Below are positions 23 to 30,073 of a stretch of 64,000 nucleotides of DNA, in pieces. Origin of the DNA: an uncultured Ardenticatenaceae bacterium (GTDB taxonomy: Bacteria > Chloroflexota > Anaerolineae > Promineifilales > Promineifilaceae); NCBI GenBank assembly GCA_964581605.1, contig CAZOPF010000001.1:45786-109785 (forward strand), read 5' to 3'. Every line of letters starts with the position of its first letter. Position 1 is the stretch's first letter. Made by a program: the position numbers and the translations under genes. The notes under the pieces were generated by a model. It made no database searches and had not been told where the DNA came from. It saw nothing but the letters and a program-made list of their open reading frames with translations.

Positions 23-2227
23 ATGATGATCATCTGGCCGGCCTCAGTTTTGGTCCTCTCAGGATTTGGCATTATATTAGGCATGAGCCTGCCCATCCTT
101 GTTATTCTGATCACCGATAGCCTGTTACCCCCAAAAGGAATCACATTGGCGGCCGTCATAGCTACCATTGTGGGGGCGGTGACCGTGTTGATTGATCTAT
201 TCGGGCCGGCAAATCGCACACAGGTCCCTCCGGCCGTGGAAGCATTTTTGCCCGCCATGGTTATAGCCATCATCCTCATTTATGGCCTCTTTATTGCCTA
301 TAATTTTAAGAATTACAGTATGCGTGCCAAGCTGATTACGGCCACGGCCATGGTGTCCATTGTGTCTGTGGTTGCGGTCACTATCATTGTCGGTATTACT
401 ACTCGCAACGCTTTGATTGACCAGGTGGGCAATAACATGCAAAGTCTGGCTGAATCACAGGCGTTGGCGTTGGGCGAGGTATTGTCCCGCCAGATCAATA
501 TCATGGAAACCCTGGCCTTGAATCGGGCTGTGACCGATGCCGTGCAAGCCCGCAATGCGTTTTATGAGGGGCAAACGCCGCAAGAAATTGAAGCGGCGAA
601 TCTGGCATTGAGCCAACAATGGCATAATGCCGACAGCACCGACCGGCTGGTGTTAAGTATTATGAACAACTCTACTTCACAACAGTTGGTGAGCTTCCAG
701 CAAACGTTCCCTGATCATACCCTTCTTTTGCTTACCGACATAAACGGCGTTCTGGTAGCTGCTTCCCAACGGCCGGATCGTTTTGATTATAGTGAAGAAG
801 AATGGTGGCAAAATACCTATTCATCTGGTTTTGCTGCTGTGCATGTTGGCCAGCCTTATGTATCTGAGACTCGTGATGATGTGCTTGTGGATATTGCTGT
901 ACCTGTGCGTACTGTAAACAATACCGGACGTTCAAAGGTTGCGGGCGTACTGCTCACCTCATATAGTCTGGCTTCGGTAGCCGAAATTTTGCGGCAGTCT
1001 GTCTTTGGCGATTCGGGTCATTTTCATCTGCACTTTCCGAATTTCCGGCAGATGAAGTTACATGAAGGCGAAGAAGGAAAGTTGTTGGAATTTATACTTC
1101 CCGACGAAGCAAACATTGTAGATCGCTTGTGGTTCAATAACCTGCCTTTCTTAAACGACTTTTTTGAGGGCGTTCCCAGCCTGGTAAGCCAGGCGCGGGT
1201 GAATACGTTGGCTTATGAACCAAAGGTGGACAGCCTGGGGTGGCGGGTGGTTGCTGTGCAAGATGAAGCTGAGGCTTTGCAACCTGTGGAGCAACAACAG
1301 CGCACCAATATCTTGTTAGGCGTGTTTATTGTGCTGCTGGCTTCAGGGATGGCCGCACTTATTGCCCAGCTTCTTTCCCAACCCATTATCAGGCTGACGA
1401 ATACGGCCGTGCAAGTGGCTGAAGGCGACCTGTCTGCCCGTGCTGTTGTGCAAAGCAATGATGAAATTGGCACATTGGCGACCACCTTTAACCGGATGAC
1501 GGACCAACTGCAAGAATCTATTACAGGGCTGGAACAACGAGTTGGCGAACGTACCCGCGCTTTGACAGCCAGCGTAGAGGTGAGCCGCAGCCTTTCTACC
1601 GTATTAGACCCCGATCAATTGGTAGTGGAAGTGGTTGAACAGGTACGCGCAGCTTTTGGTTATTACTATGTCCAAATCTATCTGTTTGATGATCAACAAA
1701 ACCGGCTGTACATGGTGGGCGGTACTGGCGAAGCGGGGCAGGTTTTGCTGGCACGGGGTCATTCTTTAGCTGCCGGGCAAGGGCTGGTTGGCCGAGCGGC
1801 CGCCACCAATACCCCCGTCTTTATTCCTGATGTCTCTTTAGCACCTGAGTGGAAGCCAAACCCACTGCTGCCGGATACACGGGCGGAAATCACCCTGCCC
1901 ATTGCTATTGGTGAACGGGTTCTGGGTGTGCTAGACGTGCAGCATGATGTGTCTGATGGATTGGTTGAAGAAGATGTTCAGGTGTTGCAATCGGTGGCTT
2001 ATCAGGTGGCTATTGCCATCCAAAATGCCCAGTCATTTGACCAGGCGCGTAAGCAGGCAGAACGCGAAGCGATGATTAACGCAATTAACCAGAAAATCCA
2101 AAGCGCCACCTCAGTAATGGCCGTGTTACAAATTGCAGCCGAAGAATTGGGACATGTGTTCGATGAACAAAAGACCAGCGTCCAGCTTTTTAATCCGGCA
2201 CAAAAAGCAAACGGGAACGGCCGTTAA
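23..2227 (+). CDS. Membrane sensor protein: Cache-like extracytoplasmic domain, HAMP, GAF and a conserved C-terminal tail; no catalytic output domain
   Basis: 734-aa ORF from ATG 23. N-terminal TM helices are followed by a ~330-aa loop homologous to the N-terminus of the 2957-aa neighbour (EEWWQNTY vs QEAWWQAAY), then a second TM. HAMP-like PIIRLTNTAVQVAEGDLSARAVVQSNDEIGTLATTFNRMTDQL. GAF signature WKPNPLLPDTRAEITLPI..GERVLGVLDVQH. The promoter lies off-window. Confidence 0.85.
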   Translation: MMIIWPASVLVLSGFGIILGMSLPILVILITDSLLPPKGITLAAVIATIVGAVTVLIDLFGPANRTQVPPAVEAFLPAMVIAIILIYGLFIAYNFKNYSMRAKLITATAMVSIVSVVAVTIIVGITTRNALIDQVGNNMQSLAESQALALGEVLSRQINIMETLALNRAVTDAVQARNAFYEGQTPQEIEAANLALSQQWHNADSTDRLVLSIMNNSTSQQLVSFQQTFPDHTLLLLTDINGVLVAASQRPDRFDYSEEEWWQNTYSSGFAAVHVGQPYVSETRDDVLVDIAVPVRTVNNTGRSKVAGVLLTSYSLASVAEILRQSVFGDSGHFHLHFPNFRQMKLHEGEEGKLLEFILPDEANIVDRLWFNNLPFLNDFFEGVPSLVSQARVNTLAYEPKVDSLGWRVVAVQDEAEALQPVEQQQRTNILLGVFIVLLASGMAALIAQLLSQPIIRLTNTAVQVAEGDLSARAVVQSNDEIGTLATTFNRMTDQLQESITGLEQRVGERTRALTASVEVSRSLSTVLDPDQLVVEVVEQVRAAFGYYYVQIYLFDDQQNRLYMVGGTGEAGQVLLARGHSLAAGQGLVGRAAATNTPVFIPDVSLAPEWKPNPLLPDTRAEITLPIAIGERVLGVLDVQHDVSDGLVEEDVQVLQSVAYQVAIAIQNAQSFDQARKQAEREAMINAINQKIQSATSVMAVLQIAAEELGHVFDEQKTSVQLFNPAQKANGNGR

Positions 2228-2246
2228 CCGGATTTGAGGAATACTC

Positions 2247-4739
2247 ATGCGCACACGAATGAAGGCATTCTTAGCACCCCCCGTTTTTCCAGATGATGAA
2301 GACAAAAGCCGTATTGCCAGTCTGCTCAATATCATCTTGTTGGGCCTCCTTTGTTTCATGGGAGTCATCGTACTCACGACCCTCTTTACCAACCCCGCCC
2401 CTGGCTCGTTGTTGGTGAATAGTACAACACTGACAATCGCCATTTTCTTGTATTATCTGTTCCGGCGCGGCCATGTTTTTTTGGTCAGCACACTGACCAT
2501 CACTATCTTCTGGTCTGTTTTAGCTTTCCTCACCTTTTTTGGTGGCGGGCTAACATTGTCCATTGTCACCAGTTACTTTGTGATATTGGTTATGGCGGCC
2601 GCCCTGTTGGGCCAAACCGCTACAATCCTTGTTGCCGCTGCCTCTCTGGTGGTCTGGACAATAGTGGGCATTTTGCAGATAAACGGACAATTGCCCGAAT
2701 CCATAACCCCCTACAATCTGGCAACAGATATAGGCGGTACATTTGGCAGCCTGATCATCTGTGCCCTCATCCTTTACCTGACTGTTAGAAACCTGAACCA
2801 ATCCCTGGCCAATGAACGTGAGAGCAATCAGCGGCTTTATGTTTATCAATCTCAGCTTGAAGAACGTGTGCGTTCCCGCACACATATTCTGGCACTGGCG
2901 GCGGAAATTGGCCGTGATCTATCCCAGGTGCGTGATGTAGAAGATTTATTGCGTGGTGCTGCTAACAGTATTTATAAAGGATTTGGTTTATATCATGTCC
3001 AGATTTATCTGGTAGATGCTTCCGGGCAAAATCTGGTCTTGCGGGCCGGTACGGGTTCGGTAGGTCAGGAATTACGCTCGCGTGGGCACAGCCTTCCCCT
3101 GAATGCAGCCTCAACAAATGGGGCCGCGGCAATCAATCGTCAGGCTGTAATTGTGGCGGATACGGCCTTGAGCCTTACTTTCCGCCCTAATCCTTTGCTG
3201 CCAGAAACCCGTTCAGAGATGGCCGTACCGCTCATTGCCAGCGATATGGTTGTAGGTGTACTGGATTTGCAAAGCGCACAACCACATGCCTTTTCCACTG
3301 ACAACCTGGGCGCGTTTGAAATTTTGGCCGGGCAGTTAGCCATTGCTATTGAAAACGCCCGCCTGATTCGTGATACCAGCCAGGCACGGACTGAATTAGA
3401 AGCCCGGGTTCGGCAATCGGCCCGTACGGACTGGAATCAATATCTGGATGCCATTCGTCATGGGGAACGAATAGGTTTTGTATACAACGCTGGTGCATTG
3501 TCACCAATTTCAGAGTCAATAATGGAATACGGCCGTGCCCAAACTGTGCCTATTAAACTGGCGGGCGAAGAGATTGGCACGATAGCGTTGGAGGAAACAG
3601 TTGCAGAATTATCGGCGGCTGATAGAGAGATGATGAATGCTATTGCCCGTCAGGTGAGCCAACAAATTGAGAATTTGCGGCTGTTAGAAGAAGCCGAGCG
3701 CTATCGCCGTGAAGCTGAAGAAGCCGCTCATCGCCTGATTCGTGAGGGGTGGGCGGATGTGTGGCAGGCGGGAAAGGATATGGGATTTGTGTATGACCAG
3801 ACGGCCGTGCAGCCATTACCCGATATGCCCGATATGGCCGCCGATGTTGTGGTGCCGCTTGCCGTTCAAGGTGAGGTAATTGGTCAACTGGAATTGGCCG
3901 GTATTGCCGCCGATGATGCCGAGACGAAGGAATTGGTAACGGCCGTAGCTGCGCGCCTCAGTGCCCATCTGGAAAACCTGCGCCTCACGGTTCAAACAGA
4001 AGAAGCTCTTTCGGAAGCCAGGCAGCGCACGGCGGAGTTAAACATTCTCAATGAAATGGAGGTGGCGTTTGCCGCTGCCCGCGAGACCGACGAGATGCTG
4101 GCACTCATCCACACCTACGCCTCCCGCCTGATCCGTCCTACCGAAAACCTATATATTGCTCTTTATGATGAAGCTCAGGACGAGATAGTCATCTACCTGT
4201 ATTATAAACCCGGCGAGATAGTCATGTCAGACAAAGTAGAAAATATCATTCGTCGCCGCAGCGGTAATGGAGTGACGGAATATGTGATGCGTACACGCAA
4301 GCCCTTGCTGATAAATGGCGATATGACGGCCGTAGCGGCTGAAATGGGCTTTGATGCTATTGGCGCCCGTTCCCAATCCTGGATGGGCGCTCCTTTAGTT
4401 GTTGGTGATCATGTGTTGGGAGTGGTAGCTTTACAGAGTTTTAGCACCCCTCATTTATATGGTGAATACCAGTTGGAATTGCTGACAGCCATTGCCAGCG
4501 GTGCGGCTATCGCCCTGGAAAATATACATCTGCTGCAACAGGTGCAGTCGCGTGCCCGCCAGGAACAGATTTTGCGGGAAGTGACGGCACGGGTCTACAC
4601 GGCCGTTGATGCCGAATCCATTCTGCGCACGGCCGCGCAGGAATTGAACCTCCACCTGGGGCTGGAAACCTTTATCTACCTGGAAGAACAAACCGAACCT
4701 GATATCGTCGCTGCCAATGGTGGTAATGGACACCACTAG
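2247..4739 (+). CDS. Multi-TM, multi-GAF sensor protein without an output domain
   Basis: 830-aa ORF with GAGGAA about 6 nt upstream of ATG 2247. Hydrophobic N-terminal ~190 aa with several TM helices. GAF (RPNPLLPETRSEMAVPLIASDMVVGVLDLQS). A REGW-type module (LIREGWADVW..GFVYDQ..VVVPLAVQGEVIGQLEL). A second GAF type (SWMGAPLVVGDHVLGVVALQSF). Tail ILREVTARVYTAVDAESILRTAAQEL. Confidence 0.85.
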   Translation: MRTRMKAFLAPPVFPDDEDKSRIASLLNIILLGLLCFMGVIVLTTLFTNPAPGSLLVNSTTLTIAIFLYYLFRRGHVFLVSTLTITIFWSVLAFLTFFGGGLTLSIVTSYFVILVMAAALLGQTATILVAAASLVVWTIVGILQINGQLPESITPYNLATDIGGTFGSLIICALILYLTVRNLNQSLANERESNQRLYVYQSQLEERVRSRTHILALAAEIGRDLSQVRDVEDLLRGAANSIYKGFGLYHVQIYLVDASGQNLVLRAGTGSVGQELRSRGHSLPLNAASTNGAAAINRQAVIVADTALSLTFRPNPLLPETRSEMAVPLIASDMVVGVLDLQSAQPHAFSTDNLGAFEILAGQLAIAIENARLIRDTSQARTELEARVRQSARTDWNQYLDAIRHGERIGFVYNAGALSPISESIMEYGRAQTVPIKLAGEEIGTIALEETVAELSAADREMMNAIARQVSQQIENLRLLEEAERYRREAEEAAHRLIREGWADVWQAGKDMGFVYDQTAVQPLPDMPDMAADVVVPLAVQGEVIGQLELAGIAADDAETKELVTAVAARLSAHLENLRLTVQTEEALSEARQRTAELNILNEMEVAFAAARETDEMLALIHTYASRLIRPTENLYIALYDEAQDEIVIYLYYKPGEIVMSDKVENIIRRRSGNGVTEYVMRTRKPLLINGDMTAVAAEMGFDAIGARSQSWMGAPLVVGDHVLGVVALQSFSTPHLYGEYQLELLTAIASGAAIALENIHLLQQVQSRARQEQILREVTARVYTAVDAESILRTAAQELNLHLGLETFIYLEEQTEPDIVAANGGNGHH

Positions 4740-4766
4740 CCTACCCTTTTTCTCGATTGGAGAATT

Positions 4767-7700
4767 ATGATGACTGAACCAATTCAACCAGATATGTCGC
4801 AAACAATCCGTGTACGTATAGCCCGGCTTCTCGACAATCTGGCAAAACCATCCAGCACCATTACAGACCCCGCCGAGCGGCTACAGGTTCGCTTTCTGGC
4901 CACCATCACGCTGGTTATTGCTGGTTTAACGGCCGTCAACATTCCGCTGCGTCTGGTTTCAGGTAGTGCCTATGAACAACCGGTGGAATTTGTTGTTTAT
5001 CTGCTCGTAAGCCTCACATTGCTGTTGGCTTATGGGCTGAGCCGCACCGCATACTACCGCTGGTCGCCACTGGTCTCTGTGACTGCACTTACCTCCACCA
5101 TTTATGCCTCATTCTTTCTGGTAGACCCTCCTAGCCAAAGCGCCTTTCTTTTCCTAGTGGTCATTGTGTTATTTGCCAGCGCCATTCTTTCTAGCCGAGA
5201 CACCTTTTTATATGCGGCAGTCAACATTCTCTTTTTGCTCATAGGGCCTTTACTCATTCCCAGCCTGGAATACTCTTTTTTAGGTCAGGCCATTGGTTTG
5301 CTCATCATTTGCACCACGCTCATTACTGTGGCAAACCAGCATCGCGATCGTGTGGCAGAAGTGCAGCGGCAAGAATTGCGAGAAGCCAACCAACAATTAC
5401 AAAACTTCAGCCAGATTCTGGAAGCACGTGTGCAAGAGCGTACCAACGACCTGGCGCTGGCTTCAGAAGTGGGGCGGGCGATCTCGCAAATTCGAGACCT
5501 GGATGAATTGTTGCAGCAGGCTGTTAACTTGATTCGGGAACGGTTTGACCTGTATTACACCCAGGTTTACCTGATGGATGAAGCCGACCAGCGGTTGATG
5601 CTGCGTGCCGGTACGGGCATGGCCGGGCAAACGCTCCTGGCGCAGGGGCACAGTTTGCCGGTGGACGAACATTCCATCAACGGCCGTGCTGCCGCCTATC
5701 GCCAGCCAGTTATCGTGCCCGATACCGGAACCAGCGACTTCTTCCGCCCCAACCCAATTTTGCCGGCCACCCGCTCGGAAATGGCCGTGCCGTTGCTGGT
5801 GCAAGATCGGGTGGTGGGGGTGATTGACTTGCAAAGCAGCCAGCCCCACGCCCTGACCAATGAGAATCTGCCCGCTTTTGCCGCTCTGGCCGGGCAGTTA
5901 GCCATAGCTATTGCCAATGCTGACTTGCTCAACGAGATGCAAGTGGCTACAGGTTTCTTAGATTCGGTCATTGAAAATATCCCTTTGATGCTCTTTGTCA
6001 AAGAGGCGACTGATTTGCGTATGGTACGTTGGAATCGTGCCAGCGAAACCCTCAGTGGCTTTCCCCGAGAATTTGTTCTGGGCAAAACAGACAGAGACAT
6101 TGTGCCGGCTGATGAAGCAGAATTTTACATGAGTAAAGACCGGGAAGTGTTGAATAGTGGCCAGTCGTTGGTCATACCAGAAGAGGAGTTTCAGTCAGCC
6201 AGCCGTGGCTTGCGCATTCTGCGCACCACCAAAACGCCTATTTTTGATGTTTACGGCCGTCCTAAATACCTGCTAGGCATCTCTGAAGATGTGACGGAAC
6301 GCAAACAGATTGAAGAGCAGTTAGCAGAACGGTTAAAACAGCTCAACTTACTCAACGAAATTGGCCGCAGAGCTGAAGAATCAAACAACGTGCCGGAATT
6401 TATGACCTGGATTACCTGGCGTGTACCTCAGGCTATGGGCCACCCAGAGGCGTGTATTGCGGCGGTTACAATGGGGACAGAGTTGTTTGGAGATAGGCGA
6501 GCGGTGGAGATGCCCCGGCATATGGTAGAAGACCTGACGGTGCGTGGCGAAATGGTGGGGCGTATTCATATCGCTTACATTGAAAGCACCTTGAATTTCC
6601 GTGATGAAGATAGCGCCATTATTGGTGGGGTGGGGCGGCGCGTGAGTAGCTTTGTGGAAAACCAACAATTGCTGGCAAAGCTGCAAAGGCAGGCTGAAAA
6701 TTTGCAAAAAGTGGCCGAAATCGGTACGGCCGTTGCCGCCAGCCGCAACCCATATCAATTGATGCAAGATGTGGCCGAAAAGACACGCGCCGCTTTTGAT
6801 CTTTACCAGACGGCCGTATTTCTGTTAGAGGAAAACCAACTGATATTAACCGGCGCGGCCGGTAATCTGGGTGTGGAAGCCAGCAGCCAAAGCCCACGCA
6901 TTTCAGCCAAATCACCCAAGTCATTGGTGGCGCGGGTGGCCCGCACGGGCCTGGGTATTCTGGTGAATGATGTAACCACCGAACCGGACTTTTTGGCCCA
7001 TCCATTGTTGCCGGATACCAAATCTGAAATCGTAGTGCCGTTGCTGGTGGGCCGCCAGGTGTTAGGTGTGCTGGATATGCAGTCCAGCCAGCAAGATGCC
7101 TTTAACATAGACGACCTTAACATTTTCACCACCCTGGCTTCCCAGGTGGCTATTTCGTTGCAAAATGCCCGGCAGTATGAGCAAACTCAAATGGCGTTGG
7201 ATGAACTCAGTTCATTGCAGCGTGTCATCACGGGCGAAAGTTGGGAATTGTTCTTAAAAGGCCGTCAGCGTGGAGTAAAAGGGTTTATGGTCAACCGCCA
7301 AAGCGCGCGCCCCATTGTGCGCCAGACGGAGGATGAGGAGACGGCCGTGCCAGAATCTGCTGATGTAGCGCCACAACCCGTCTCACTTGCCGCGTTGGCG
7401 GATGCTCAGGCATATGCGACCCCCATACAGGTGCGCGGGATGACCATTGGCAAACTGGGGGTGCGTGTGGCGGACAACACACCCATTATGCCTGAAACGC
7501 AGGCATTACTGGCTGCCATCTCCCAGCAAGTAGCCGGGGCCCTGGAACGTGCCCGCCTGTTTGAAGAAACTGAACTGGCCCGTGCCCAAACAGAGCAACT
7601 CTTTGCTGGCAGCGAGCGTGTGGTGCGGGCCACCACCTTAGACGAAGTTTTGCAGGCACTCATTTCCTCTACACCATTGCAACAAATGGATCGTGTCAAT

Positions 7701-8321: not shown

Positions 8322-8388
8322 CGCCCTACCACTTGTTTCAACACACGCGGTGGCCCATCTCAAACCAGGGCGCCGCCGGTAATGGACT

Positions 8389-20200: not shown

Positions 20201-23200
20201 CAACGGCCGTTACAGCCGTATGAGCCGGATTTGCTGGTGGCCTATGGTAGCACCATTGCCAGTTTGATAGAACGCAAACAGGTGGAACTCACCCTGCAAG
20301 AAACAAACACACGGGCGCAAGCCATCTTGGAATCGGTGACGATGCCCATGCTTATCTCCAGGGTGGCCAACGGCCGTATTCTCTATGCCAATGAACTGCT
20401 GGCCGATCTGGTGAATATGCCCCTGGCGATTCTGTTGGAACAGGGAACACCAGATTTTTATGTGCGGGCGGATGACCGGGCGGCCGTTGTGAGTGAGATT
20501 CAGGCCAAAGGCAGTGTAACCAGCTATGAGCTGGAACTCAAACGTACTAACGGAGAACATTTCTGGGCACTACTTTCGGCCCGTTTGTTTAGTTATCAAA
20601 ATGAACCGGCTATCCTGACCACGCTTATTGATATTACCGAACGGAAGCAGGCTCAAGAAGCCATACGCCAGAGTGAGCAGGACATTCAGGAATCATTGCG
20701 ATTGCAGCAAACCCTGCATGAAGTGGGGCTGGAACTGGCTAAAGTTGAATCTTTGGACGAACTATTCCGGCAGGCCATTGTGCTGGGAACGAGCCAACTT
20801 AATTTTGAACGCATTGGGCTGTTTACCTATAACAAAGCCACTAATCAGTTCAGCGGGACATACGGCCGTGATATGCAAAGTAATTTGCGAGATGAAAAGG
20901 AGTTCTCGTTCACCTTTCCAGAAGAAGATTTCAACCTGCGCTTTGGTGATATCCGGCGGCGTGTCGTTGTGGAGCGTGGTGTACCTTTGTATGATTTTGG
21001 CCTCCTCCTGGGGCATGGTTGGCATCTCACAGCGCCTATTTGGCAAAATGATGAACTGATAGGCGCATTGTTTGCTCAGGAACCAACAAATCCAGGACGG
21101 CCGTTGAAACCATATGAAGCAGATTTGTTGGCTTCTTACGGCGCTCTGCTGGCAAACCTCATTGAACGTTTACAAAATCAACTCGCTGTGCAGGAATCTC
21201 TGCGAATGCAACAAACCCTGCATGAAATAAACCTGGAACTTTCCCAGGCCGATAGTATGGACGACCTGTTTCGGCAGGTTATACATCTGGGTGAAAAACG
21301 GCTAAACCTGGAACGTTTTGCCCTGTTTCTATATAACGAGGCGCAAAACAATTTCTCTGGCACTTATGGAATTGATAAAAACGGCAATCTACGTGATGAA
21401 CATGGGGCAGAATATGTCATTAGTGTGCCAGAGATAGTAGACTATTTCCGTGACACGAAACAACGTATTTTAATTCAGGAAGCTTGTGACTTGTGGGATG
21501 ACGGTGTGGTGGTTGGGCAAGGCTGGCTGGTTACGGTACCTGTGCGGCAGGGTAATAGATTAGTGGGCATTTTGTTTACCGATAATTTGATCAGCCAACG
21601 GCCGTTATCCCCCTATTTGCGTGATATCGTTATTGCTTATAGCAATCTCATTGCTAACCTGATGGAGCGCAAACAGGCGGAAGGGTCGGTAACGGCCGCG
21701 CTGGCAGAAACTGAGCGGCTCTATGAGATGAGTGCCCGCTTGAATACCGCCACGTCCATAAGCGAAATCATGGAAGCGGTTGTAGGGCCGGTCGCCGGGC
21801 AAGGTCTGGCGGCGGCGAATTTGTTTTTGCTGGAGGTGGATGATAACGGCCGTCCTGAATGGATGGAAATGGCAGCCAATTGGGTTAACCCTGGCAGTTT
21901 GTTCGCTAATGTAAATTTCCCTATTGGCTCTCGTTTTTATCTGCCAGACCTGCCCGCAGCCAGGCATTGGATTGATAACCCCCACGGCCTCCTTTTGTAT
22001 AGCGACGTAGATCATGACGACCGGCTGGATGATGCCACCCGTGGGTTATATCAGTTGGTTGGCATAAAGGCCGGAGCGAACCTGCCTTTACGCACCGGTA
22101 ACAGATGGGTGGGTTTAGTTACACTTGCCTGGACCCATACGAAGATCTTCACCGAGGATGATCTGCGTACCTATCGGGCGCTGGCCGACCAGACCGCCAT
22201 TATTTTGAATAATCAACTCCTCTTTGAACAAACCCAAAAGCGAGCGGCCGAACTGGCAACAGTAGCCGAAGTGGGCGCTGCCATTACCACCATCCGTGAC
22301 GTAGATTCTCTGTTGCAGCGAGTGGTAGACCTGGCAAAAGAGCGGTTTAGTTTGTACCATGCCCACATTTACTTGTTAGATGAATCTGAAAATCTGATAC
22401 TTACCAGTGGCGCCGGCGAGGTGGGGCGGCGAATGGTAGCCGAGGGGCGTTCCATCCCGCTGACTCAGGGACAATCACTGGTAGCTCGTGCGGTGCGTAC
22501 GCGCCAGGGTGTGATTGTCAATGATGTTACGGCCGATGCGGGATTCTTGCCCCACCCCCTGCTGCCTGATACCAAATCGGAACTCGCCGTGCCCATGATT
22601 GTGGGTGTGGAGGTGCTGGGCGTGCTGGATATTCAGGCCAGCCGGATCAATCACTTTTCTGAAGAGGACATCCAGACTCAAACCACATTGGCCGCCCAAA
22701 TTGGCGTGGCGCTGCAAAATGCGCGTTCTTTTGCTCGTTCAGAAGCGGCCTTGAAGGAGCTGGAAGAGATCACCCGGCGTCTGCGCCGCGAAGGTTGGGA
22801 ATCCTATGTGCAGACCAGGGGACGAAATGGTTTGAGCTATGGGTATGATCAGAAGGAAGTGAAAGCGTTGGCTCTGGCAGCATCGGTGAAATCGCGCTCC
22901 CGAAAGAAAGATACGGCCGTAACCCCTACGCTAATCCACCCCTTGCAAGTGCAGGGCGAATCCATTGGTAATCTGATGCTGGCCGAGCCAACAGCCCTCA
23001 ATGATGATGCCCAGGATATTATGACGGCCGTTGCCGAACGCCTCAGTGCCCACATTGAAAACCTGCGCCTCTCTGAACAAACCGAGCAAGCCCGCCAACA
23101 AGCCGAGCAGTTATTCCAGGGTAGCGCTGCCCTCAATACCGCCCAAACCTATGAAGATGTGCTCAATGCCTTGCGCCAGCACACCATTATCGGTAGTGCA

Positions 23201-23830
23201 GGTATGAATAGCAGTACCATCAATTATTTTGATCGTCCCTGGACAAAAACAGAAACGCCAGAAATGATAGAGGTATTGGCGCGTTGGAGCCGTCTGCCCA
23301 TTGAGGCACTGCCCATGCGCTTCTCCTTTGCCACGTTTGCCTCCATGGCCCACCTGCTGCAACCGGAAGCGCCCACGCTCATTGCAGATGTCGCCAACGA
23401 TAAACGGTTGAGCAAAGAGGCGGCCGCCTTTTTCCAGAATTTCTTTCAGGCGGAAAGTCTGGTTTTCATGCCGTTGCTCAGTGGGTCGCAATGGGTGGGT
23501 TTCATCAATGCTATTTATGACCAAAAGACCCCATTCCCGGAGATAGAAATTCGTCGCCTCACCGTGTTGAGCCAGCAGGCCACTGTCGCCATTCAAAGTA
23601 TCCGCCTCTTTGCCCAGGCCCAGGCGCGGGCCGAACGTGAACGCCAGGTGCGTACCATCACGGATAAAATTCGGCGTGGCAATGATCGGGAGGCTATCCT
23701 GCGTATTGCCCGCGAAGAATTGAGCGTGTTGTTGGGCGCTTCAAAATCTGTGGTGCATTTAGGCGTGCCAGAGCAGTTACTACCCACCGTGGCAAATCTG
23801 GAGCAATCGCCAACGGGCCATGGTGAGTGA
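17273..23830 (+). CDS. Cytoplasmic multi-PAS/multi-GAF sensor protein (~2185 aa) without an output domain
   Basis: The ORF track starts at 17189, overlapping the upstream gene. ATG 17273 has AGGAG 8 nt upstream and lies 10 nt after the upstream stop. Four tandem N-terminal PAS domains (e.g. YRTIMESIEDGYYEADLDGSFTFMN), two further PAS, canonical GAFs (LPHPLLPNTRAELAVPM, LPHPLLPDTKSELAVPM) and three FDRLGL/FERIGL-type GAF-like modules. Tail QVRTITDKIRRGNDREAILRIAREEL. No TM segments. Confidence 0.88.
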   Translation: MAIRNKPNEMVMPEPDVLLEQRVAVFQPMLEISPDPSIIYDAIGQVVYVNPAFSQVFGWELSELIGHRLDFVPEERKEETAIAINALLQNGVATNFITKRLTKDGRVLDVQTSAIVLREHDSPMFGSLVMIRDITAQKEAERSLRASEIRYREMLESTPDAYYEVDLSGAITYYSPGLAEVLGYPEEELLGLSNRDYANTANARQIYEAFNQVYHTGQPAKAILMHTIRKDGTPQILETSIALRKDESGNTIGFRGIARDVTGLVRKRQEAEEALSHSEERYGTILQTIEDGYYETNLKGDFTFVNEQWAAIHGCSVAEMLGTNYKDYTIPDRVDAIYAQFNRVYDSGEPVKSLVNEIATKDGRYCHLEISASLVRDNDGQPIGFCGIGRDVTDRIQNEAQLRESEARYRTIMESIEDGYYEADLDGSFTFMNDQLCEVIGYPRHELMGKNYRDYTTPETAERVFATFNQVYKTGEPVNGFVWEAFGKDGRIRHLETFILPRFNEAGETIGFRGVGRDITQRVQAEEALAEALIDQERIASQLATVAKVSTAVSTILDPQEMLLAVVDQVKESFNLYHTHVYLLNEAGDTLELVAGAGEVGRQMVQEGRSIPLTQEQSLVARAARSRSGIIANDVRKDPHFLPHPLLPNTRAELAVPMIVGNQVLGVLDMQADTTNRFTQRYVNIQTTLATQIAVALQNARLYAQAQRQTVELQETSALLDQVVEILPVGLFMKEAENLRFVRWNKANEEITGLKHAEVIGKNDYDFFAKEQADFFTSKDREVLGGRAMVDIAQEAIGTAHRGQRLLHTRKLPILGADGTPRYLLGVSEDITERHQAEETLQASLALQQTLHDISLELTRAETLKELLQQAILLGHQRLNFDRLGLYLFERETRRFTGTFGTDKQGNLIDERDSVFDISEEDYLAQFSDIRQRVFVRHDAELYDAKQVAGRGWHLTVPLWQSDQFVGALFADNLVSQRPLQPYEPDLLVAYGSTIASLIERKQVELTLQETNTRAQAILESVTMPMLISRVANGRILYANELLADLVNMPLAILLEQGTPDFYVRADDRAAVVSEIQAKGSVTSYELELKRTNGEHFWALLSARLFSYQNEPAILTTLIDITERKQAQEAIRQSEQDIQESLRLQQTLHEVGLELAKVESLDELFRQAIVLGTSQLNFERIGLFTYNKATNQFSGTYGRDMQSNLRDEKEFSFTFPEEDFNLRFGDIRRRVVVERGVPLYDFGLLLGHGWHLTAPIWQNDELIGALFAQEPTNPGRPLKPYEADLLASYGALLANLIERLQNQLAVQESLRMQQTLHEINLELSQADSMDDLFRQVIHLGEKRLNLERFALFLYNEAQNNFSGTYGIDKNGNLRDEHGAEYVISVPEIVDYFRDTKQRILIQEACDLWDDGVVVGQGWLVTVPVRQGNRLVGILFTDNLISQRPLSPYLRDIVIAYSNLIANLMERKQAEGSVTAALAETERLYEMSARLNTATSISEIMEAVVGPVAGQGLAAANLFLLEVDDNGRPEWMEMAANWVNPGSLFANVNFPIGSRFYLPDLPAARHWIDNPHGLLLYSDVDHDDRLDDATRGLYQLVGIKAGANLPLRTGNRWVGLVTLAWTHTKIFTEDDLRTYRALADQTAIILNNQLLFEQTQKRAAELATVAEVGAAITTIRDVDSLLQRVVDLAKERFSLYHAHIYLLDESENLILTSGAGEVGRRMVAEGRSIPLTQGQSLVARAVRTRQGVIVNDVTADAGFLPHPLLPDTKSELAVPMIVGVEVLGVLDIQASRINHFSEEDIQTQTTLAAQIGVALQNARSFARSEAALKELEEITRRLRREGWESYVQTRGRNGLSYGYDQKEVKALALAASVKSRSRKKDTAVTPTLIHPLQVQGESIGNLMLAEPTALNDDAQDIMTAVAERLSAHIENLRLSEQTEQARQQAEQLFQGSAALNTAQTYEDVLNALRQHTIIGSAGMNSSTINYFDRPWTKTETPEMIEVLARWSRLPIEALPMRFSFATFASMAHLLQPEAPTLIADVANDKRLSKEAAAFFQNFFQAESLVFMPLLSGSQWVGFINAIYDQKTPFPEIEIRRLTVLSQQATVAIQSIRLFAQAQARAERERQVRTITDKIRRGNDREAILRIAREELSVLLGASKSVVHLGVPEQLLPTVANLEQSPTGHGE

Positions 23831-23920
23831 GCAGGTAAAATAAGCGAGAAGTTAACCGGCTGATGGTTGGTATAGGCAGCTAGCCACCAGTCACTAACGA
23901 CCATTTACGAAGGATATAAG

Positions 23921-24295
23921 ATGCCACAACAAGTGACTTTGATTGCCGCTAATATCGTCAAAATTGAGTTTATCGGTGATGTGACCGATGACGATGCCCT
24001 GCAAAACGCGGATCAAATTGATCAATTTATAGCGAATCTACCAGCCGATGAACGGCTTCATTTTTTGGTAGACGCCACGCGGATAGGTAAGATTTCCACC
24101 AGAGCACGCCATGTGTTTACCGAACGAAACAAGAATCCAAGGGTGGGCCACACAGCGATCTTTGGTGTTAACCGGGCACTCAAAGTATTGGGCGTATTTA
24201 TTGCCAAGGCGAGCAAACGAGACAATCTCCATTTTGTCAATGATGAAGCAGAAGGGTTGGCGTGGCTGCAAGAGAAGGCAAACCATAAGTGGTGA
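23921..24295 (+). CDS. Small STAS/SpoIIAA-like fold protein (tentative)
   Basis: 124-aa ORF with GAAGGA upstream of the ATG. The pattern IVKIEFIGDVTDDD....ERLHFLVDATRIGKIS..AR......NPRVGHTAIFGVN resembles STAS/SEC14-like (DUF3478-type) proteins. Assigned from recall of the family pattern only. Confidence 0.5.
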   Translation: MPQQVTLIAANIVKIEFIGDVTDDDALQNADQIDQFIANLPADERLHFLVDATRIGKISTRARHVFTERNKNPRVGHTAIFGVNRALKVLGVFIAKASKRDNLHFVNDEAEGLAWLQEKANHKW

Positions 24296-24332
24296 AGGTA
24301 ATATCACCCATTTTCAGTGAGAGGAATTGGCA

Positions 24333-25610
24333 ATGGCAGATAAGCTGACCTATGCACAGTATAAACGGATGGTGGAAGAGCAAGGACAGGCTATTCTGGA
24401 TGTGTTGGCTCTGGCTGCTACCGGCACGCTGGATGTGGAGCTTGAGATTCCCGAAGGGATCGAGGTGATGTCTGACCTGGCCATCGGGTTTTCTTATCTC
24501 ATGGATGATATTAAGGCCCTGCTCCGGCAGCAGCGTGAATATCAACGAGAACTGGAGCAACGAGTAGCCGAACGCACGGCCGAACTGGAACGGACACTGG
24601 CCGAGCTACGTAGTATGCAAAGCCGGTATGTCCGTGAGCAGTGGGAAGGATATAAGGTGGTAGACACGGCCGTACCCGATGACTCTCTCGACGCGCTCTG
24701 GCTGCCAGCTCTGGCTGAAGCGGTGCAATCACACAAAGCAGTGCATATGGCCCCCGCCGGCCATGGTGTGGCGCTGGCTTTGCCCATCATCTATGCAGAC
24801 GAACCAATTGGTGCGCTGGCTTTAGGCCGGGATGACGATATCCCCTGGGATGAAGAAGAAATAATGGCTGCCCAAGATATCGTAGAGCAGTTGGGTCTGG
24901 CATTGGAAAACCAACGGTTGTTTGATCAGTCACAACAACGGGCAGCGGAACTGGCTATCCTCAATGAAATGGTGGGTGAATTAGCCCAACTCCTGGACGA
25001 AAGCCCCATTCTGGAAGCCATTTATCGCTACAGTTCCCGGCTGATGGATACCACCAATTTTTATGTTGCCATCCACAATAAATACACAAATGAAGTTGCT
25101 TTTCCCATTGCTGTGGAAGATGGCAAACGAGTAACCTGGCGTTCACGGCCGTTTGGTAATGGCATGAGCGAATATCTGCTGCGCACCGGCCAATCCCTTT
25201 TTGTGGAAGATGGGTTGGAAAAGTGGCTGCGCAGCCAGGGTGTGGAATCCATTGGCAGCCCATCCCGGTCCTGGATGGGTGTGCCGCTGCGTGTGGGCAG
25301 CGATGTGGTGGGGCTGATTGCTCTGCAAAGTTTGCAGCCTCGTTTTTATACACGAGAACAATTCGACCTGCTCAACGCCGTGGCCAACCAGGCTGCCATT
25401 GCCATTCAAAATGCCCGCCAATTCCAACAGGAACAGGCACGTGCCCAACGCCAGCAAATGCTGCGTGAAATAGCCGCAAAGGTTCGTGGTTCGGCCGATG
25501 TAGATACGATTATGCGCACGGCCGTGCAAGAAATCGGCCAGGCATTGGGGCGGCAAGCCTACATTTACCTGGGCGCTCAAACTACCCAAACGGCCGATGA
25601 GGATGCCTGA
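24333..25610 (+). CDS. Soluble GAF protein with a REGW-type module and the conserved tail; no output domain
   Basis: The ORF track begins at TTG 24327. ATG 24333 lies 9 nt after GAGAGG. N-terminal coiled coil (QRELEQRVAERTAELERTLAELR). Module YVREQWEGY..LPIIYADEPIGALAL. GAF of the LAILNEMV...SWMGVPLRVGSDVVGLIALQS type. Tail MLREIAAKVRGSADVDTIMRTAVQEIG. Confidence 0.85.
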   Translation: MADKLTYAQYKRMVEEQGQAILDVLALAATGTLDVELEIPEGIEVMSDLAIGFSYLMDDIKALLRQQREYQRELEQRVAERTAELERTLAELRSMQSRYVREQWEGYKVVDTAVPDDSLDALWLPALAEAVQSHKAVHMAPAGHGVALALPIIYADEPIGALALGRDDDIPWDEEEIMAAQDIVEQLGLALENQRLFDQSQQRAAELAILNEMVGELAQLLDESPILEAIYRYSSRLMDTTNFYVAIHNKYTNEVAFPIAVEDGKRVTWRSRPFGNGMSEYLLRTGQSLFVEDGLEKWLRSQGVESIGSPSRSWMGVPLRVGSDVVGLIALQSLQPRFYTREQFDLLNAVANQAAIAIQNARQFQQEQARAQRQQMLREIAAKVRGSADVDTIMRTAVQEIGQALGRQAYIYLGAQTTQTADEDA

Positions 25611-28600
25611 TATGAGTAAGACAAATAATCACAACCTCTACCAGATTCTCTTTCAACAATCAAAAGATGGCGTTTTTATCATCAATAGCGAAGGCACCGT
25701 GGCCGACGCCAATGACGCTTTTTTGGAAATGGTGGGTTATACGGCCGCCCAAATCAAAAAGCTCAACGTATCCCAACTGATTGCTGAAGAAGAACTGCAA
25801 ATACTGACCAACGCCTTGCTGCGCGAAAATGCCGTTCGTGATTATTTGTTGCCCATTCGTCGCCACAATGGTCATGTACTGGAAGTGTTGACCTCCATAA
25901 CCGTGCAGCATGATGCCAATGGGCAAATACAAAACTATCTGGGCATTGTCCGCGAACTCCATTGGCGACAACAAGCCAACCGTGATTTTCAACAAAAACT
26001 ACGCACACTCCAACGTGTCACCACCGAGCTGGACCGCGCGACATCACTAGATGAGCTATATCGCCGGGCTATTGAATTTGGACACAATGATTTGGGCTTT
26101 GAACGCATGGGCCTGCTGCTGCTGGATGAGCATACCGGCTACATGCGGGGCACTTATGGCATCAATGAATTCGGGCAAATTGTGGACGAACATGATCTTT
26201 TTGTGCCACCTGACGAACGTCATCTGGAGCTGGTACGGGCCAAAGGGCGTTCCATCTTGTATGAAGATGTGCCCCTGTTTACCGGCGGCAAAGAGACTGG
26301 CCGAGGCTGGAACGCCATTGCTGTTTTGTGGGATGGCGAACAGGGGGTTGGCTGGCTGGCGGCCGATAATGGCCTCACCGGCGAGCCACCGTCCGAATAT
26401 GTATTAGACATCCTGACGTTATATGGAGATACCATTGGGCATCTGATCAGCCGCAAATTACATGAAGAATCCGAACGATTGTTTCAACAAAAACTGCAAA
26501 TTTTGCAGGAGGTTAATCTAGAACTTTCACGGGTTCAAGATATGGGTGAGTTATATCGCCGGGCGATTGAACGTGGACGAGATGCTCTTGGGTTTGATCG
26601 TATCGGCCTGCTTATGTATGACCAGTCTACCAATACCATGCAGGGCACATTTGGTACAGATGACAAAGGCCAACTGCGTGATGAACAGTATTTCCAGCAA
26701 GCAGTAACAGACCCGGATGTATTAGCTATTATTGTAGAGAAGAAGCGGCTGGGCTTTTGGCAAACCAAACCCTTGATGGATGAAGGGAAACCGGTGGGCA
26801 AGGGGTGGAATGCAATGGCCCCCTTGTGGTATGAAGATAGAATTTTAGGCTGGCTGGCGGCCGATAATTTGCTTAAACGTGAACCTCTGCTTTCTTTCCA
26901 ACCCGATCTACTGGCCTTGTATGCAGCCACGTTAGCCCATCTGATTGTGCGGTTGCAGGCGGCCGAAAACCTGCGTAAACAAGAGACCTTGTTGCGCCTG
27001 GTGCTGGATACTATTCCCCAATCTGTTTTTTGGAAGGATCGCAACTCAATTTATTTGGGTAGTAACCTGAACTTTGCCGCCGCCGCCGGGCTTCCTGCCC
27101 CGGAATATCTGGTGGGCAAATCCGATTATGATTTCTGGCCGCGGGAGCAGGCAGATATCTTTGTGGAAACTGATCGGCGGGTAATGCAGGGACATGAACC
27201 CTTGCTAGGAATCATAGAGTCCATTCCGCAGGCTGATGGTACCGTCGTCTGGGCAGAAACGAATAAAGCGCCACTGTATGATGTGCAGGGCAATGTTATT
27301 GGTGTCCTGGGTACATCCGAAAACATTACTAAACGCAAACAGGCTGAAGAGACGCTGTATCAGTCGCAGCAACAACTGGCTGAATCACTGGCCAGGCGTG
27401 AACGTGAAGTGGCCCTGGCTACCCAAATTGCCCAGGAAATTGCCAGTGCGGCTGATCTGAATGAGCTTTATGAAGGCGCGGTGGCCCAAATTCACGAGCA
27501 ATTTGGCTATTACCATACCCAACTGCTCCGTTATGATGCGGCTATGCAAACACTGGCGCTGGCGGTAGGTTATGGTGAAGTGGGCCAGAAGATGCTGGGA
27601 ATGCACCATTCGGTACCGGTGGGTGTGGGGCTTATTGGTAAAGCGGCCGCTACGGGGAAATCTATCTTGCGTGCGGATCTCACCGCCGATCCAGACTATC
27701 GCCCCAATCCTTTGCTGCCTGATACAAAAGGAGAATTGGCCATACCTATCAAGTTGCGAGATGAAGTGCTGGGTGTGCTGGACATACAAAGCAATCGAGT
27801 TAATGCCCTCAATGCCAATGACCAGTTAGTTTTGGAAGGGTTGTGTGGGCAAGTGGCGGTGGCTATTGAAGGTACAATTTTGCGCCAGGAGATGGAGTCT
27901 CGCTTACGTGAATTGAACGTGTTGCAGCGGCAAATGACGCGCGAGGGCTGGCGTGAATACCAGTCTGCCCGACCAGATTTGCCTGGTTATCAATATGATC
28001 ATGCCGGCGTGCAATTGTTGGCAGAGGGGATGATGCCCCAGACGAACGGCCATACTAATGGCACCGCAAAACGCAAACAGGGGGGTACGGCCGTGACCGC
28101 TGCCACCCTCCCCTTACAAATCCGCAACGAAACAATAGGCTTCCTGGGCATCCAGTCCCCCCCGGATAAACCCCTCACCCCAGACGAGCAGGAATTTCTG
28201 GACGCCGTCTCCAAAGAAGTGGCCGAAGCACTGGAGGCCGCCCGCCTCTTTGAGCAAACCCAGGACGCCCTATCCGAACAAGAACGCCTCACGGCCGAAC
28301 TGGAAACCGTAGCCCAGGTTAGCACTGTTGCCTCCACCATCCTGGAAGCGGATGCCCTGTTGCAAGCCGTAGTAGACCTGTCCAAGACCAGCTTCAACCT
28401 TTACCACGTCCACATCTACCTGCTCAACGAAACCGGCCGTAAGCTCACCCTTAAAGCAGGGGCCGGCAATGTTGGCCGACTGATGGCCCTGGAGGGGCGC
28501 GAAATTGCCATTGATGCTGATTCTTTGGTGGCACGCGCCGCCCGTACCCGCCAGGGTGTGCTGGAAAACAACGTCCGCAAGACAGTAGACTTTCTGCCAC

Positions 28601-29544: not shown

Positions 29545-29595
29545 AATCGGCTCTATGCACAAGAAGTTGAACTTCTCTTCTTCTAAATCGGCAGT

Positions 29596-29624
29596 TTGCA
29601 CCTGAAATTTGGCAGCATTATTGT
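29596..29624 (+). promoter_or_regulatory. Weak candidate internal promoter for the receiver gene (TTGCAC-17 nt-TATTGT)
   Basis: -35 at 29596-29601 and -10 at 29619-29624 with a 17-nt spacer. It overlaps the second copy of a CTAAA(A)TCGGC..T.TGCAC direct repeat. Confidence 0.25.
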
Positions 29625-29689
29625 TACAATTGGTTGTTCATGGATCAGGCAAGTAGATGAAGTTGTAGAAATATAGTTAAAGAGGAATT

Positions 29690-30073
29690 ATGGAAGGTAC
29701 ACGTAAAAAAGTGATGTGCGTTGAAGACAATTCAGTCAATATGCTGTTGGTCTCGCGCATTGTGGAAGCTGAGGGGCATGAATTGGTGCAGGCTGTTGAT
29801 GGCTATGCCGCTCGTGATATTTTGAAAGAGATGGTGCCGGATATCATCTTGCTGGATATTAACTTGCCCGGCGTTTCTGGTTTGGAATTGGCGCGTGAGT
29901 TTAAGTCGGATGTCCGGTTGACAAAAGTGCCACTGATTGCCACAACAGCCCAGGTATTGGTGGGAGATAGGGAGCGCTGTTTGGAGGCTGGCTGTGATGA
30001 TTATCTGCCCAAACCATTAGACATACGGAAGCTGCGCGAAGTGCTGCGATTTTATTTGAATAACGGCCAATAA
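29690..30073 (+). CDS. Single-domain response regulator (CheY-like receiver)
   Basis: 127 aa with AAAGAGGAA 5 nt upstream of the ATG. Motifs KVMCVEDN and DIILLDINLPGVSG (acceptor Asp codon 29855-29857), PLIATTA, and DDYLPKPLD with the conserved Lys. No output domain. Confidence 0.95.
   Translation: MEGTRKKVMCVEDNSVNMLLVSRIVEAEGHELVQAVDGYAARDILKEMVPDIILLDINLPGVSGLELAREFKSDVRLTKVPLIATTAQVLVGDRERCLEAGCDDYLPKPLDIRKLREVLRFYLNNGQ

Follow-up and report, generated by a model that had tools for sequence, protein, structure and literature searches.

In bacterial signalling theory, a sensor is assumed either to carry its own output domain or to bind a dedicated kinase. To our knowledge, there are few systems, among them chemoreceptor arrays and the stressosome, for which it is understood how cells combine many inputs into a single decision. 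In phytochromes and tandem-GAF proteins, signals are established to run along a continuous helical spine. In plants, ethylene-receptor isoforms without kinase activity work by associating non-covalently with active ones, a contact in which the GAF domain has been implicated.

The locus described here, from a Chloroflexota (Anaerolineae) chromosome, resembles chemoreceptor arrays (MCPs, CheW, CheA, and CheY) in that its inert sensors, often dCache/HAMP membrane proteins, share a C-terminal module that may couple them, and in that its genes predict one histidine kinase phosphorylating a free single-domain receiver and a small adaptor protein encoded in the operon. The putative coupling module differs from that of these arrays in being part of a GAF domain, and the sensors may form a series instead of standing side by side; Pfam detects no MCPsignal, CheW, or CheA-type kinase (Hpt, CheW-like domain) in the nine proteins of the window. 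As in the stressosome (RsbR paralogues, RsbS, and RsbT), a STAS-fold protein is present and paralogous sensors may co-assemble in one hub. Here, however, the STAS-like protein (PF11964) stands alone and many operons do without it, the sensors lack STAS domains, and the window operon encodes no STAS-fused sensor, RsbT/SpoIIAB-type serine kinase, or PP2C phosphatase.

Seven sensors, one kinase, and one receiver

The window, a stretch of 64,000 nucleotides, contains nine plus-strand ORFs (g1–g9, Table 1), each start being preceded by a GGAG/GAGG-type ribosome-binding site. ORF calls bear out the nine co-directional genes of the initial annotation, with intergenic spacers of −14 to +145 nt, but its gene complement was incomplete. 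The 5′ end of g1 is cut by the window, and its ORF, read from position 23, had been taken for a 734-aa protein; an identical 22-kb metagenome contig covers the missing part, so that the full length is 818 aa. Upstream of g1, across a 340-nt intergenic region, lies g0, which encodes an output-less protein of 458 aa with 5–6 transmembrane segments and a GAF domain. The unit, putatively transcribed as one, therefore has ten genes (∼32 kb) and seven output-less proteins. For g5 we took the ATG at 17273 with its GGAG site as the start, the ORF itself opening at a GTG (17189); the g7 ORF starts at 24327 or 24333. A possible internal promoter is located at 29602–29630. A 16-bp hairpin behind g9 is probably a bidirectional terminator and the end of the unit. 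An Rfam scan of the whole window returned no RNA family.

Table 1. Genes and features of the operon, in window coordinates (tail, C-terminal GAF fragment; mini, half-GAF module; leaf, protein with a tail and no mini; TM, transmembrane segment)
Feature	Coordinates	Strand	Description
g1, 3′ part (741/818 codons)	1..2227	+	start upstream of window; multi-TM, dCache, TM, HAMP, GAF, tail; leaf
g2, 830 aa	2247..4739	+	5 TM, GAF, mini, mini, GAF, tail
g3, 1184 aa	4767..8321	+	5–6 TM, GAF, PAS, GAF-like region, GAF, mini, GAF, tail
g4, 2957 aa	8389..17262	+	multi-TM, dCache, TM, HAMP, about 13 GAF and 2 PAS including one mini, tail
g5, 2185 aa	17273..23830	+	cytoplasmic; 6–7 PAS, about 8 GAF including one mini, tail
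g6, 124 aa	23921..24295	+	SpoIIAA-like/STAS-like (PF11964)
g7, 425 aa	24333..25610	+	soluble; HAMP-like helices and coiled coil, mini, GAF, tail
g8, 1315 aa	25597..29544	+	histidine kinase; PAS, GAF, GAF, PAS, GAF, mini, GAF, HisKA, HATPase_c; no tail
g9, 127 aa	29690..30073	+	single-domain receiver
g1 tail	2030..2224	+	linker helix, GAF helix 1 and strand 1, low-complexity end
g2 tail	4527..4736	+	
g3 tail	8085..8318	+	
g4 tail	17023..17259	+	
g5 tail	23603..23827	+	
g7 tail	25416..25607	+	
g2 tandem mini pair	3381..3989	+	residues 379–481 and 484–581
g3 mini	7191..7565	+	residues 809–933
g4 mini	13111..13464	+	residues 1575–1692
g5 mini	22742..23077	+	residues 1824–1935
g7 mini	24588..24923	+	residues 86–197, atypical N-terminal variant
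g8 mini	27895..28254	+	residues 767–886, only special module of the kinase
g8 H1087 codon	28855..28857	+	phospho-accepting His in SHELRTP
g9 Asp56 codon	29855..29857	+	phospho-accepting Asp
16-bp hairpin	30078..30116	.	between convergent g9 and THUMP-like methyltransferase gene

The only Pfam families found in the six large window proteins are dCache_1, HAMP, PAS, and GAF. When stretches without Pfam cover (tails, transmembrane N-termini, and inter-domain gaps) were rescanned at E ≤ 10, one extra PAS and no hidden output domain emerged, and NCBIfam returned nothing above cut-off (scans of g2, g6, and g7). No recognizable output domain is present in g0–g5 and g7, so that the sensor-only, effector-free composition first described for six proteins really extends to seven. 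Hydropathy locates multiple transmembrane segments in the N-termini of g1–g4 and none in g5, g7, and g8, in line with the earlier division into four membrane-anchored and three cytoplasmic proteins.

Catalytic signalling parts are confined to g8 and g9, as had been proposed, and both have the sequence hallmarks of classical two-component proteins: in g8 a HisKA domain (PF00512, 73.6 bits, residues 1078–1145) with its H-box and a HATPase_c domain (PF02518, 99 bits, residues 1192–1300), and in g9 a receiver (PF00072, 82.9 bits) whose translation shows the acidic pocket (E12-D13), D56, T85/T86, and K108. Phosphotransfer from g8 to g9 is predicted from the adjacency of the two genes, which is kept in about 30 loci. 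The closest solved relative of g9 is DivK (E = 2.6e-27). Like DivK-type single-domain regulators it has no output domain and therefore must bind a partner or pass its phosphoryl group on; the likeness is one of sequence, and unlike in DivK systems no DivL, PleC, DivJ, or Hpt partner is encoded in the locus. The mid-operon protein g6, initially called STAS-like, indeed passes the Pfam gathering score of SpoIIAA-like PF11964 (28.3 bits, cut-off 25) over the full model (positions 1–106), and has no sequence relative among PDB structures.

Complementary fragments of a GAF domain

All seven output-less proteins end in a common tail of ∼56 aa, which comprises an inter-GAF linker helix and, of the GAF domain that would follow, just helix 1 and strand 1. 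Its motif, RAxREQxLRxIxxKIxxSxDxExILRTAVxELGxxLGxxxxVxL, is followed by a disordered end. The tail can be aligned residue by residue with the linker and first part of internal GAFs, and also with the N-terminal helix and strand of phytochrome/CBCR GAFs and with the GAF-PHY linker in PDB entry 8w26. The likeness to phytochrome and cyanobacteriochrome GAF-PHY spines is limited to this N-terminal part. The tail lacks the complete GAF fold (helix 1, 5–6 strands, and a closing helix), and alone it does not match Pfam GAF (PF01590/PF13185/PF13492). In phytochromes and tandem-GAF proteins GAFs and effector sit on one chain, whereas here the chain ends with the first helix and first strand of a GAF, and a different protein carries the effector. 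Because the tail occupies the place that HisKA has in g8, we considered a pseudo-DHp hairpin, but rejected it since the tail aligns to GAF starts.

By sequence comparison among orthologues, the tail is the best-conserved segment of these proteins: its identity is 0.73–0.79 in g3 orthologues (0.36–0.52 for GAF cores) and 0.85–0.88 in those of g7 (compared with 0.65). A tail profile matches 9868 representative proteins. A separate homologue search with the profile gave almost exclusively short fragments from contig ends, under the taxon names Anaerolineae, Anaerolineales, and Chloroflexota. Among the best 150 of these 9868, about 80 have a strong match no more than 40 aa from the C-terminus. The 38 diverse family members inspected contain sensor domains only, and none of 462 retrieved proteins combines a tail with HisKA/HATPase.

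These data bear on the idea that mutation or assembly error has split one giant kinase gene, or a few, into the present genes, with the tails as accidental truncations. In one long-read MAG (contig_10546) genes are indeed split as if by frameshift errors, and g2 and g3 share one reading frame with 27 nt between them. Each gene nevertheless comes with a separate ribosome-binding site and start codon, the gene boundaries repeat in independent assemblies, including the identical second contig, and the membrane-spanning N-termini of g0–g4 cannot be internal to one protein. A truncation point identical to the residue across thousands of proteins, within their most conserved region, effectively refutes fragmentation or pseudogenization, which we regard as extremely improbable.

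A second module, the mini (∼110 aa), carries a REGW motif and two short strands, followed by the last two strands and the last helix of a GAF. Its last ∼60 residues map to positions ∼72–136 of the 136-position Pfam GAF model. The AlphaFold2 (AF2) model, of lower confidence than for full GAFs, shows a helix, four strands, and a helix, with neither helix 1 nor strand 1; by Pfam mapping and AF2 the mini thus falls short of the complete fold. The mini is a GAF minus helix 1 and strand 1, the very elements found in the tail. The unit encodes seven minis (two in g2, one each in g3, g4, g5, g7, and g8) and, with g0, seven tails. Both fragments, which carry our argument, are absent from the initial annotation. 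Our literature search returned no description of output-less GAF arrays, the tail, or the REGW module; both fragments are unannotated and deserve family definitions even if the docking discussed below is wrong. Annotations as 'GAF domain-containing protein' hide a coherent system.

We consider it possible, and hold it tentatively, that tail and mini are the halves of a naturally split GAF that reassemble between polypeptides, as a modular connector joining seven or more sensors in series, with two-into-one branches, to one kinase at the end. An unlikely alternative is that the sensors regulate the kinase without tail-mini docking, by assembling into mixed dimers or oligomers via the GAF/helical spine, much as ethylene-receptor subfamilies associate by their GAF domains, or through the STAS-like adaptor, the tail being a helical cap that ends and stabilizes the parallel coiled-coil dimer of each sensor. 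Structure prediction gives this alternative some room: AF2 models show the tail as a long helix, a 16-residue helix, and an unpaired end, i.e. a helix-to-helix continuation of the spine. The g7 model matches tandem-GAF structures, and this whole-protein fold is that of the dimeric regulators CyaB2, PDE2 (PDE2A), PDE5, and PDE6. In the monomer models neither protein has its tail placed on its own mini, a result that counts neither for nor against docking in trans. A mere cap leaves unexplained why it includes the first strand of a GAF, and why kinases adjacent to tail genes carry a half-GAF without exactly that helix and strand. The adaptor version has the further difficulty that a g6-type gene is optional, many related operons having none.

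Tails and minis in related operons

The gene order of the window is found again in other genomes and metagenomes of Chloroflexota with g7 identities as low as 34–41%: TM/Cache-HAMP-GAF proteins, a PAS-GAF protein, a STAS-like protein, a small GAF protein, a PAS/GAF kinase, and a single receiver. The synteny search suggested with the initial annotation thus identifies the gene set as a conserved unit and not a chance neighbourhood. The core order of sensor(s), kinase, and receiver is kept in Ardenticatenaceae, Promineifilaceae, Anaerolinea, Thermoflexales, and many metagenome lineages, frequently with overlapping starts and stops; in the window, the stop of the last sensor gene (g7) overlaps or abuts the g8 start. 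Synteny with kinase and receiver and this last overlap would also be expected if the sensors acted on the kinase without docking. Among orthologues, the number of GAF and PAS domains varies widely, while mini count and tail are kept.

Across about 60 related loci, many of them orthologous, so that the statistics overstate independence, kinases encoded directly after a tail gene have at least one mini in 30/30 cases, compared with 1/10 for other kinases of the same loci (Fisher p = 4e-8). In 20 of 24 loci, the gene that follows the leading tail-only genes has as many minis as there are such genes, and in 17 loci two leaf genes precede a tandem mini pair, an arrangement that is left unexplained if tails do not dock. 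In an advance prediction, a kinase chosen solely for its two minis proved to have exactly two dCache-HAMP-GAF-tail genes directly upstream. In five related genomes of one lineage g5 and g7 are fused, and the g5 tail, the STAS gene, and the g7 mini are lost together.

Tails (plugs) and minis (sockets) are equal in number in the window unit (7/7), in CAYXUZ010000005 (6/6), in L018 (3/3, an apparent third mini there being an ordinary GAF half), and in five loci with 2/2 each (L038, L041, L042, L045, and L051). A larger metagenome sample ruled out equality as a law. One recurrent operon type (L056, L059, L061, and L076), composed of two leaves, a tail protein with two minis, and a kinase with two full minis and an N-terminal partial one, has three plugs for 4–5 sockets; L040 and L043 have one plug and two sockets, and L033 has eight plugs, seven sockets, and a kinase without a mini. 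Such unequal counts favour regulation without docking, and equal counts fit several matchings, including one in which a dimer pairs the tail and the mini of the same protein. Tail and mini could also co-occur simply as lineage-specific traits of a single paralogous family in expansion.

The output-less proteins might instead be independent of the kinase, as ligand buffers, scaffolds, or sensors whose tail acts on an unrelated target, their adjacency reflecting local duplication within the lineage. They have no detectable output domain, their interaction with the kinase is putative, the paralogues are ancient and diverse, two tail-protein arrays (L029 and L028) show no kinase within the stretch covered, and the L033 kinase has no mini. 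We consider independence improbable in view of the order kept across many lineages, the strong tail-mini association with kinases, and the g5–g7 fusion, which drops one tail and one mini together. The initial annotation had left the choice between a multiprotein sensory assembly and a paralogue array under diversification. The shared C-terminal tail and the tight link of tail genes with socket-bearing kinases speak for an assembly, physical or functional, rather than for independent sensors; a recent array does not fit the paralogues, which are 14–46% identical in their last GAFs and 18–59% in their tails, each having its own orthologues elsewhere.

A possible chain of sensors and its significance

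Our preferred reading, to which we give a little less than an even chance, is a non-covalent plug-and-socket assembly of sensors that converges on one phosphorelay, the seven output-less proteins supplying input to the g8 kinase and the DivK-like g9 receiver. By fragment complementation, the tail of one protein would dock on the mini of another: strand 1 of the tail (xFVYL) would join the mini sheet, and helix 1 would pack beside the last helix of the mini, extending the signalling helix from protein to protein. The membrane sensors g0 and g1 would feed the double socket of g2, and the signal would then pass from g2 via g3, g4, g5, and g7 to the kinase, or the same plugs and sockets would be paired in another way. 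Numerous PAS, GAF, and Cache modules that bind ligands would thereby jointly set the activity of the kinase toward its free receiver. Because g6 always precedes a protein that starts with HAMP-like helices and a mini, it may regulate the g5–g7 joint. The proposed arrangement recalls ethylene-receptor heteromers, in which inactive members likewise act through a kinase-active partner with GAF involvement; there, however, whole GAFs of homologous full-length receptors take part rather than complementary fragments, and organism and architecture are unrelated.

Anaerolineae are abundant in sludge, sediments, and soils. The locus belongs to an extensive family that lacks annotation and counts thousands of representative proteins, most of them from Anaerolineae, in which a conserved domain fragment stands in place of the sensor output domain and the complementary fragment is found in the partner kinase. 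If these fragments dock, sensors would be wired in series in a genetically modular way. Multi-input kinases would then have a model open to direct testing, and synthetic biology would gain two new portable connectors between proteins. If the split-GAF reading is true, it would represent a new principle by which signal-integration circuits are built from separate genes, a chain being lengthened by insertion of a gene with one socket and one plug and shortened by fusion, as for g5 and g7.

Gene content and boundaries of the unit

ORF calling located nine + strand genes (g1-g9) within the first 30 kb of the window, exactly where the initial annotation had placed them, with intergenic spacers of -14 to +145 nt and a GGAG/GAGG-type ribosome-binding site at each start. 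A 22-kb metagenome contig of identical sequence reaches further upstream than the window. It reveals that the g1 product, previously taken to be 734 aa long, has a full length of 818 aa, and that g1 is preceded by a further gene, g0 (458 aa; a single GAF and 5-6 TM segments, without output domain). The nine genes and six output-less sensors counted in the initial annotation are correctly sited but incomplete, and with g0 the unit comprises ten genes and seven output-less proteins. A 340-nt intergenic region lies directly 5' of g0. The upstream genes, encoding a squalene-hopene-cyclase-like 509-aa protein, a 291-aa secreted-looking protein and a 284-aa protein without Pfam match, recur before the operon in a relative at 65% identity, and the 5' boundary at g0 is therefore conserved. 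g2 and g3 share a reading frame; since g3 is equipped with a ribosome-binding site of its own and its product has a membrane N-terminus, read-through from g2 is not needed. A sigma-70-like site in the 145-nt g8-g9 spacer suggests that g9 may also have its own promoter, a weak candidate because our scan returned fewer promoter-like sites than in shuffled sequence.

Pfam assigns only dCache_1, HAMP, PAS and GAF domains to the six large proteins, a SpoIIAA-like domain (PF11964) to the STAS-like g6, HisKA and HATPase_c to g8, and a receiver to g9. We mapped domains with iterated, window-derived GAF, PAS and HAMP profiles. Rescanning the uncovered stretches at E<=10 yielded one additional PAS and no hidden output domain, and NCBIfam gave nothing more above its cut-offs, so that the absence of recognizable effector domains, set beforehand as a check, is borne out. 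Hydropathy assigns multi-TM N-termini to g1-g4 but to none of g5, g7 and g8, in agreement with the proposed four membrane and three cytoplasmic proteins, and the phospho-acceptors H1087 of g8 and D56 of g9 are both encoded at the codons named earlier. The original observation is real, and richer than first described.

The remainder of the window is ordinary chromosome (nusA, infB, truB, ribF, S1 protein, ABC transporters), and no Rfam RNA family was found in the window. The three genes convergent to the operon, or a CHAT/NPHP3_N variant, recur at the equivalent place in four distant relatives (L002, L004, L008, L009) and may form a conserved defence-like island beside it.

Coordinates of features in the window and in related loci
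Locus	Position	Strand	Feature
Window	4737-4769		One TAG + 27 nt between g2 and g3
Window	29602-29630		Sigma-70-like -35/-10 with extended TG (g9 promoter candidate)
Window	30078-30116		16-bp hairpin common to unit and convergent gene; putative end of unit
Window	30097-33269	-	THUMP-like methyltransferase, PD-(D/E)XK nuclease, TIR/EAD7 protein
Window	49458-50822	+	454-aa ORF between opposite-strand 265-aa ORF and 339-aa ORF; no Pfam match at E<=1e-5
Window	52000-56000		G+C 0.61-0.64 vs ~0.53 elsewhere; HlyD-like and MacB/FtsX-like exporter genes
L001	710-4306		Conserved upstream genes
L034	1-3207		Conserved upstream genes
L010 (Herpetosiphonaceae, BPHZ01000011.1)	5499-13439		GAF-only proteins (1499 and 679 aa) directly 5' of small GAF-PAS kinase
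L038	13357-17037		PALP (pyridoxal-phosphate enzyme)-receiver fusion, two single receivers, another PALP protein, downstream of two-socket kinase

The C-terminal tail and the half-GAF module

Alignment of the C-termini revealed that all seven output-less proteins end in a motif of ~56 residues followed by a short low-complexity end (the tail, or plug); g8 has its HisKA domain at the equivalent position. Position by position, the tail corresponds in alignment to the linker helix of internal GAFs and to their first helix and strand. Among solved structures it matches best the helix/strand at the N-terminus of phytochrome and cyanobacteriochrome GAFs, together with the GAF-to-PHY linker of SyB-Cph1 (8w26); a Pfam scan at E<=10 returned no family covering it. 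In AF2 models of g7 (pLDDT 78.6) and of g3 residues 640-1184 (pLDDT 77.1), the tail begins with a helix of 45 residues, continues with one of 16 and ends unpaired. No other part of the proteins is as well conserved (identity 0.73-0.79 vs 0.36-0.52 for the GAF cores among 23 g3 orthologues; 0.85-0.88 vs 0.65 in g7). Alongside such conservation, we regard broken genes as an extremely improbable origin of these proteins.

A tail profile searched against 1.84 billion representatives gave 9868 matches at E<=1e-3; at E<=1e-10 there were 2124, a mixed set that includes multi-GAF kinases matching weakly at each GAF start. About 80 of the top 150 have a strong match <=40 residues from the C-terminus. 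Thirty-eight diverse members contain sensor domains only, with GAF in 38/38 and HAMP, PAS, dCache, Cache3-Cache2, sCache, 4HB_MCP, periplasmic binding domains or MASE11 besides. None of 462 fetched proteins combines a tail with a kinase core.

Six GAF matches in the unit are too short for full domains and align as a distinct module of ~110 aa (the mini, or socket). Its elements are, in order, a linker helix that ends in REGWxxY, the motif GYxYDQxxVQPL, a variable loop, a hairpin (PLxVxGExIG) and a closing helix (ENxRL). A profile search detects seven full minis, two in tandem in g2 and one each in g3, g4, g5, g7 and g8, and none in g0 and g1. Pfam covers only the last ~60 residues, corresponding to GAF positions ~72-136 of 136, and AF2 predicts a helix, four strands and a helix, at a confidence below that of neighbouring full GAFs; the mini is therefore a GAF without helix 1 and strand 1. 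The absent parts are exactly those held by the tail.

Tails and minis across related operons

All named homologues are Chloroflexota (Anaerolineae, Ardenticatenaceae, Promineifilaceae, Thermoflexales). The synteny that the initial annotation wished to see examined can be followed down to a g7 identity of 34-41%: membrane Cache/HAMP/GAF proteins come first, then a PAS-GAF protein, the STAS-like protein, a small GAF protein, the kinase and the receiver. Sampling one genome per species yielded 23 loci, and in nearly all of these the tail genes are followed immediately by a kinase gene and one single receiver; only part of the loci contain the STAS-like gene. Orthologues differ greatly in how many GAF and PAS domains they contain, whereas tails and mini counts are constant. 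That these are independent proteins held together by descent appears to us improbable. Five genomes encode g5 and g7 as one polypeptide; with the fusion, the g5 tail, the STAS-like gene and the g7 N-terminus with its mini are gone, so that one plug and one socket are lost together.

An operon version of >39 kb in an uncultured Chloroflexia MAG (contig_10546; L035+L027) encodes at least nine tail proteins. Several of its genes appear split into a large ORF and a tail-bearing ORF of ~190 aa (847+186, 1125+192, 597+606 aa), probably by long-read frameshift errors. The L010 GAF-only proteins have no detectable tail or mini; they may represent a separate, or else a strongly diverged, version of output-less GAF proteins adjoining a kinase. 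The output side of L038 is unusual within this operon family.

Tails and minis are equal in number in the window unit (7 and 7), in its fused relative CAYXUZ010000005 (6 and 6), in L018 (3 and 3) and in L038, L041, L042, L045 and L051 (2 and 2 each). Among 40 kinases with a visible upstream gene, those directly preceded by a tail gene have at least one mini in 30/30 cases, the others in 1/10, that one with a tail gene one ORF further upstream (Fisher p = 4e-8, a figure inflated by orthology among loci). Leaf genes, which encode a tail and no mini, stand first in operon order, and in 20/24 loci there are as many of them as the next gene has minis (two leaves then a tandem pair in 17, one leaf then a single mini in 3). 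As predicted in advance, a kinase picked solely for its two minis has immediately upstream of it two, and no more, dCache-HAMP-GAF-tail genes that lack minis.

A general 1:1 rule is not upheld across operons. A recurrent type (L056, L059, L061, L076) has 3 plugs vs 4-5 sockets, made up of a pair of leaves, one tail protein with two sockets, and a kinase that has an N-terminal partial mini besides two full ones; L040 and L043 have 1 plug vs 2 sockets, and in L033, whose kinase lacks a mini, the numbers are 8 plugs vs 7 sockets. The kinases of the recurrent type, all from metagenomes, open with a coiled coil and a partial mini like the g7 N-terminus, then tandem minis. Just upstream of the leaf genes, a ~790-aa hybrid GAF-kinase-receiver and a GAF protein of ~900 aa, neither with tail or mini, are conserved.

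Equal counts also fit other matchings, such as the pairing of tail and mini from the same protein within a dimer, and in the AF2 monomer models of g7 and g3 (640-1184) the tails are undocked. Sensor coupling by way of other surfaces, in which the tail would serve as a dimer cap, is a minority possibility in our estimate. The sole firm point is that kinases carry sockets without a plug, and leaves plugs without a socket.

Proposed sensor coupling and known systems

Our best reading, which we hold at just under an even chance, is non-covalent coupling of sensor to sensor and sensor to kinase by tail-mini complementation. The tail of one polypeptide would complement the mini of another, in sensors and kinase alike, and the joint would carry the helical signalling spine known from tandem GAF/phytochrome proteins across polypeptides. 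The g8 kinase would then phosphorylate the DivK-like free receiver g9. A naturally split GAF domain as the connector has, in our view, a substantial chance, a shade below that of the reading as a whole.

The unit is a bona fide HisKA two-component system. It is similar in logic to chemoreceptor arrays, the stressosome and ethylene-receptor heteromers; it contains no MCPsignal, CheW or CheA of the chemotaxis type, and no sensor-fused STAS, RsbT or PP2C of the stressosome. The searchable literature yielded no account of the tail, of the mini or of operons of this kind. The known part is a two-component system supplied with accessory sensors; the input side is unprecedented, and a split-GAF connector, if true, would be a new principle.
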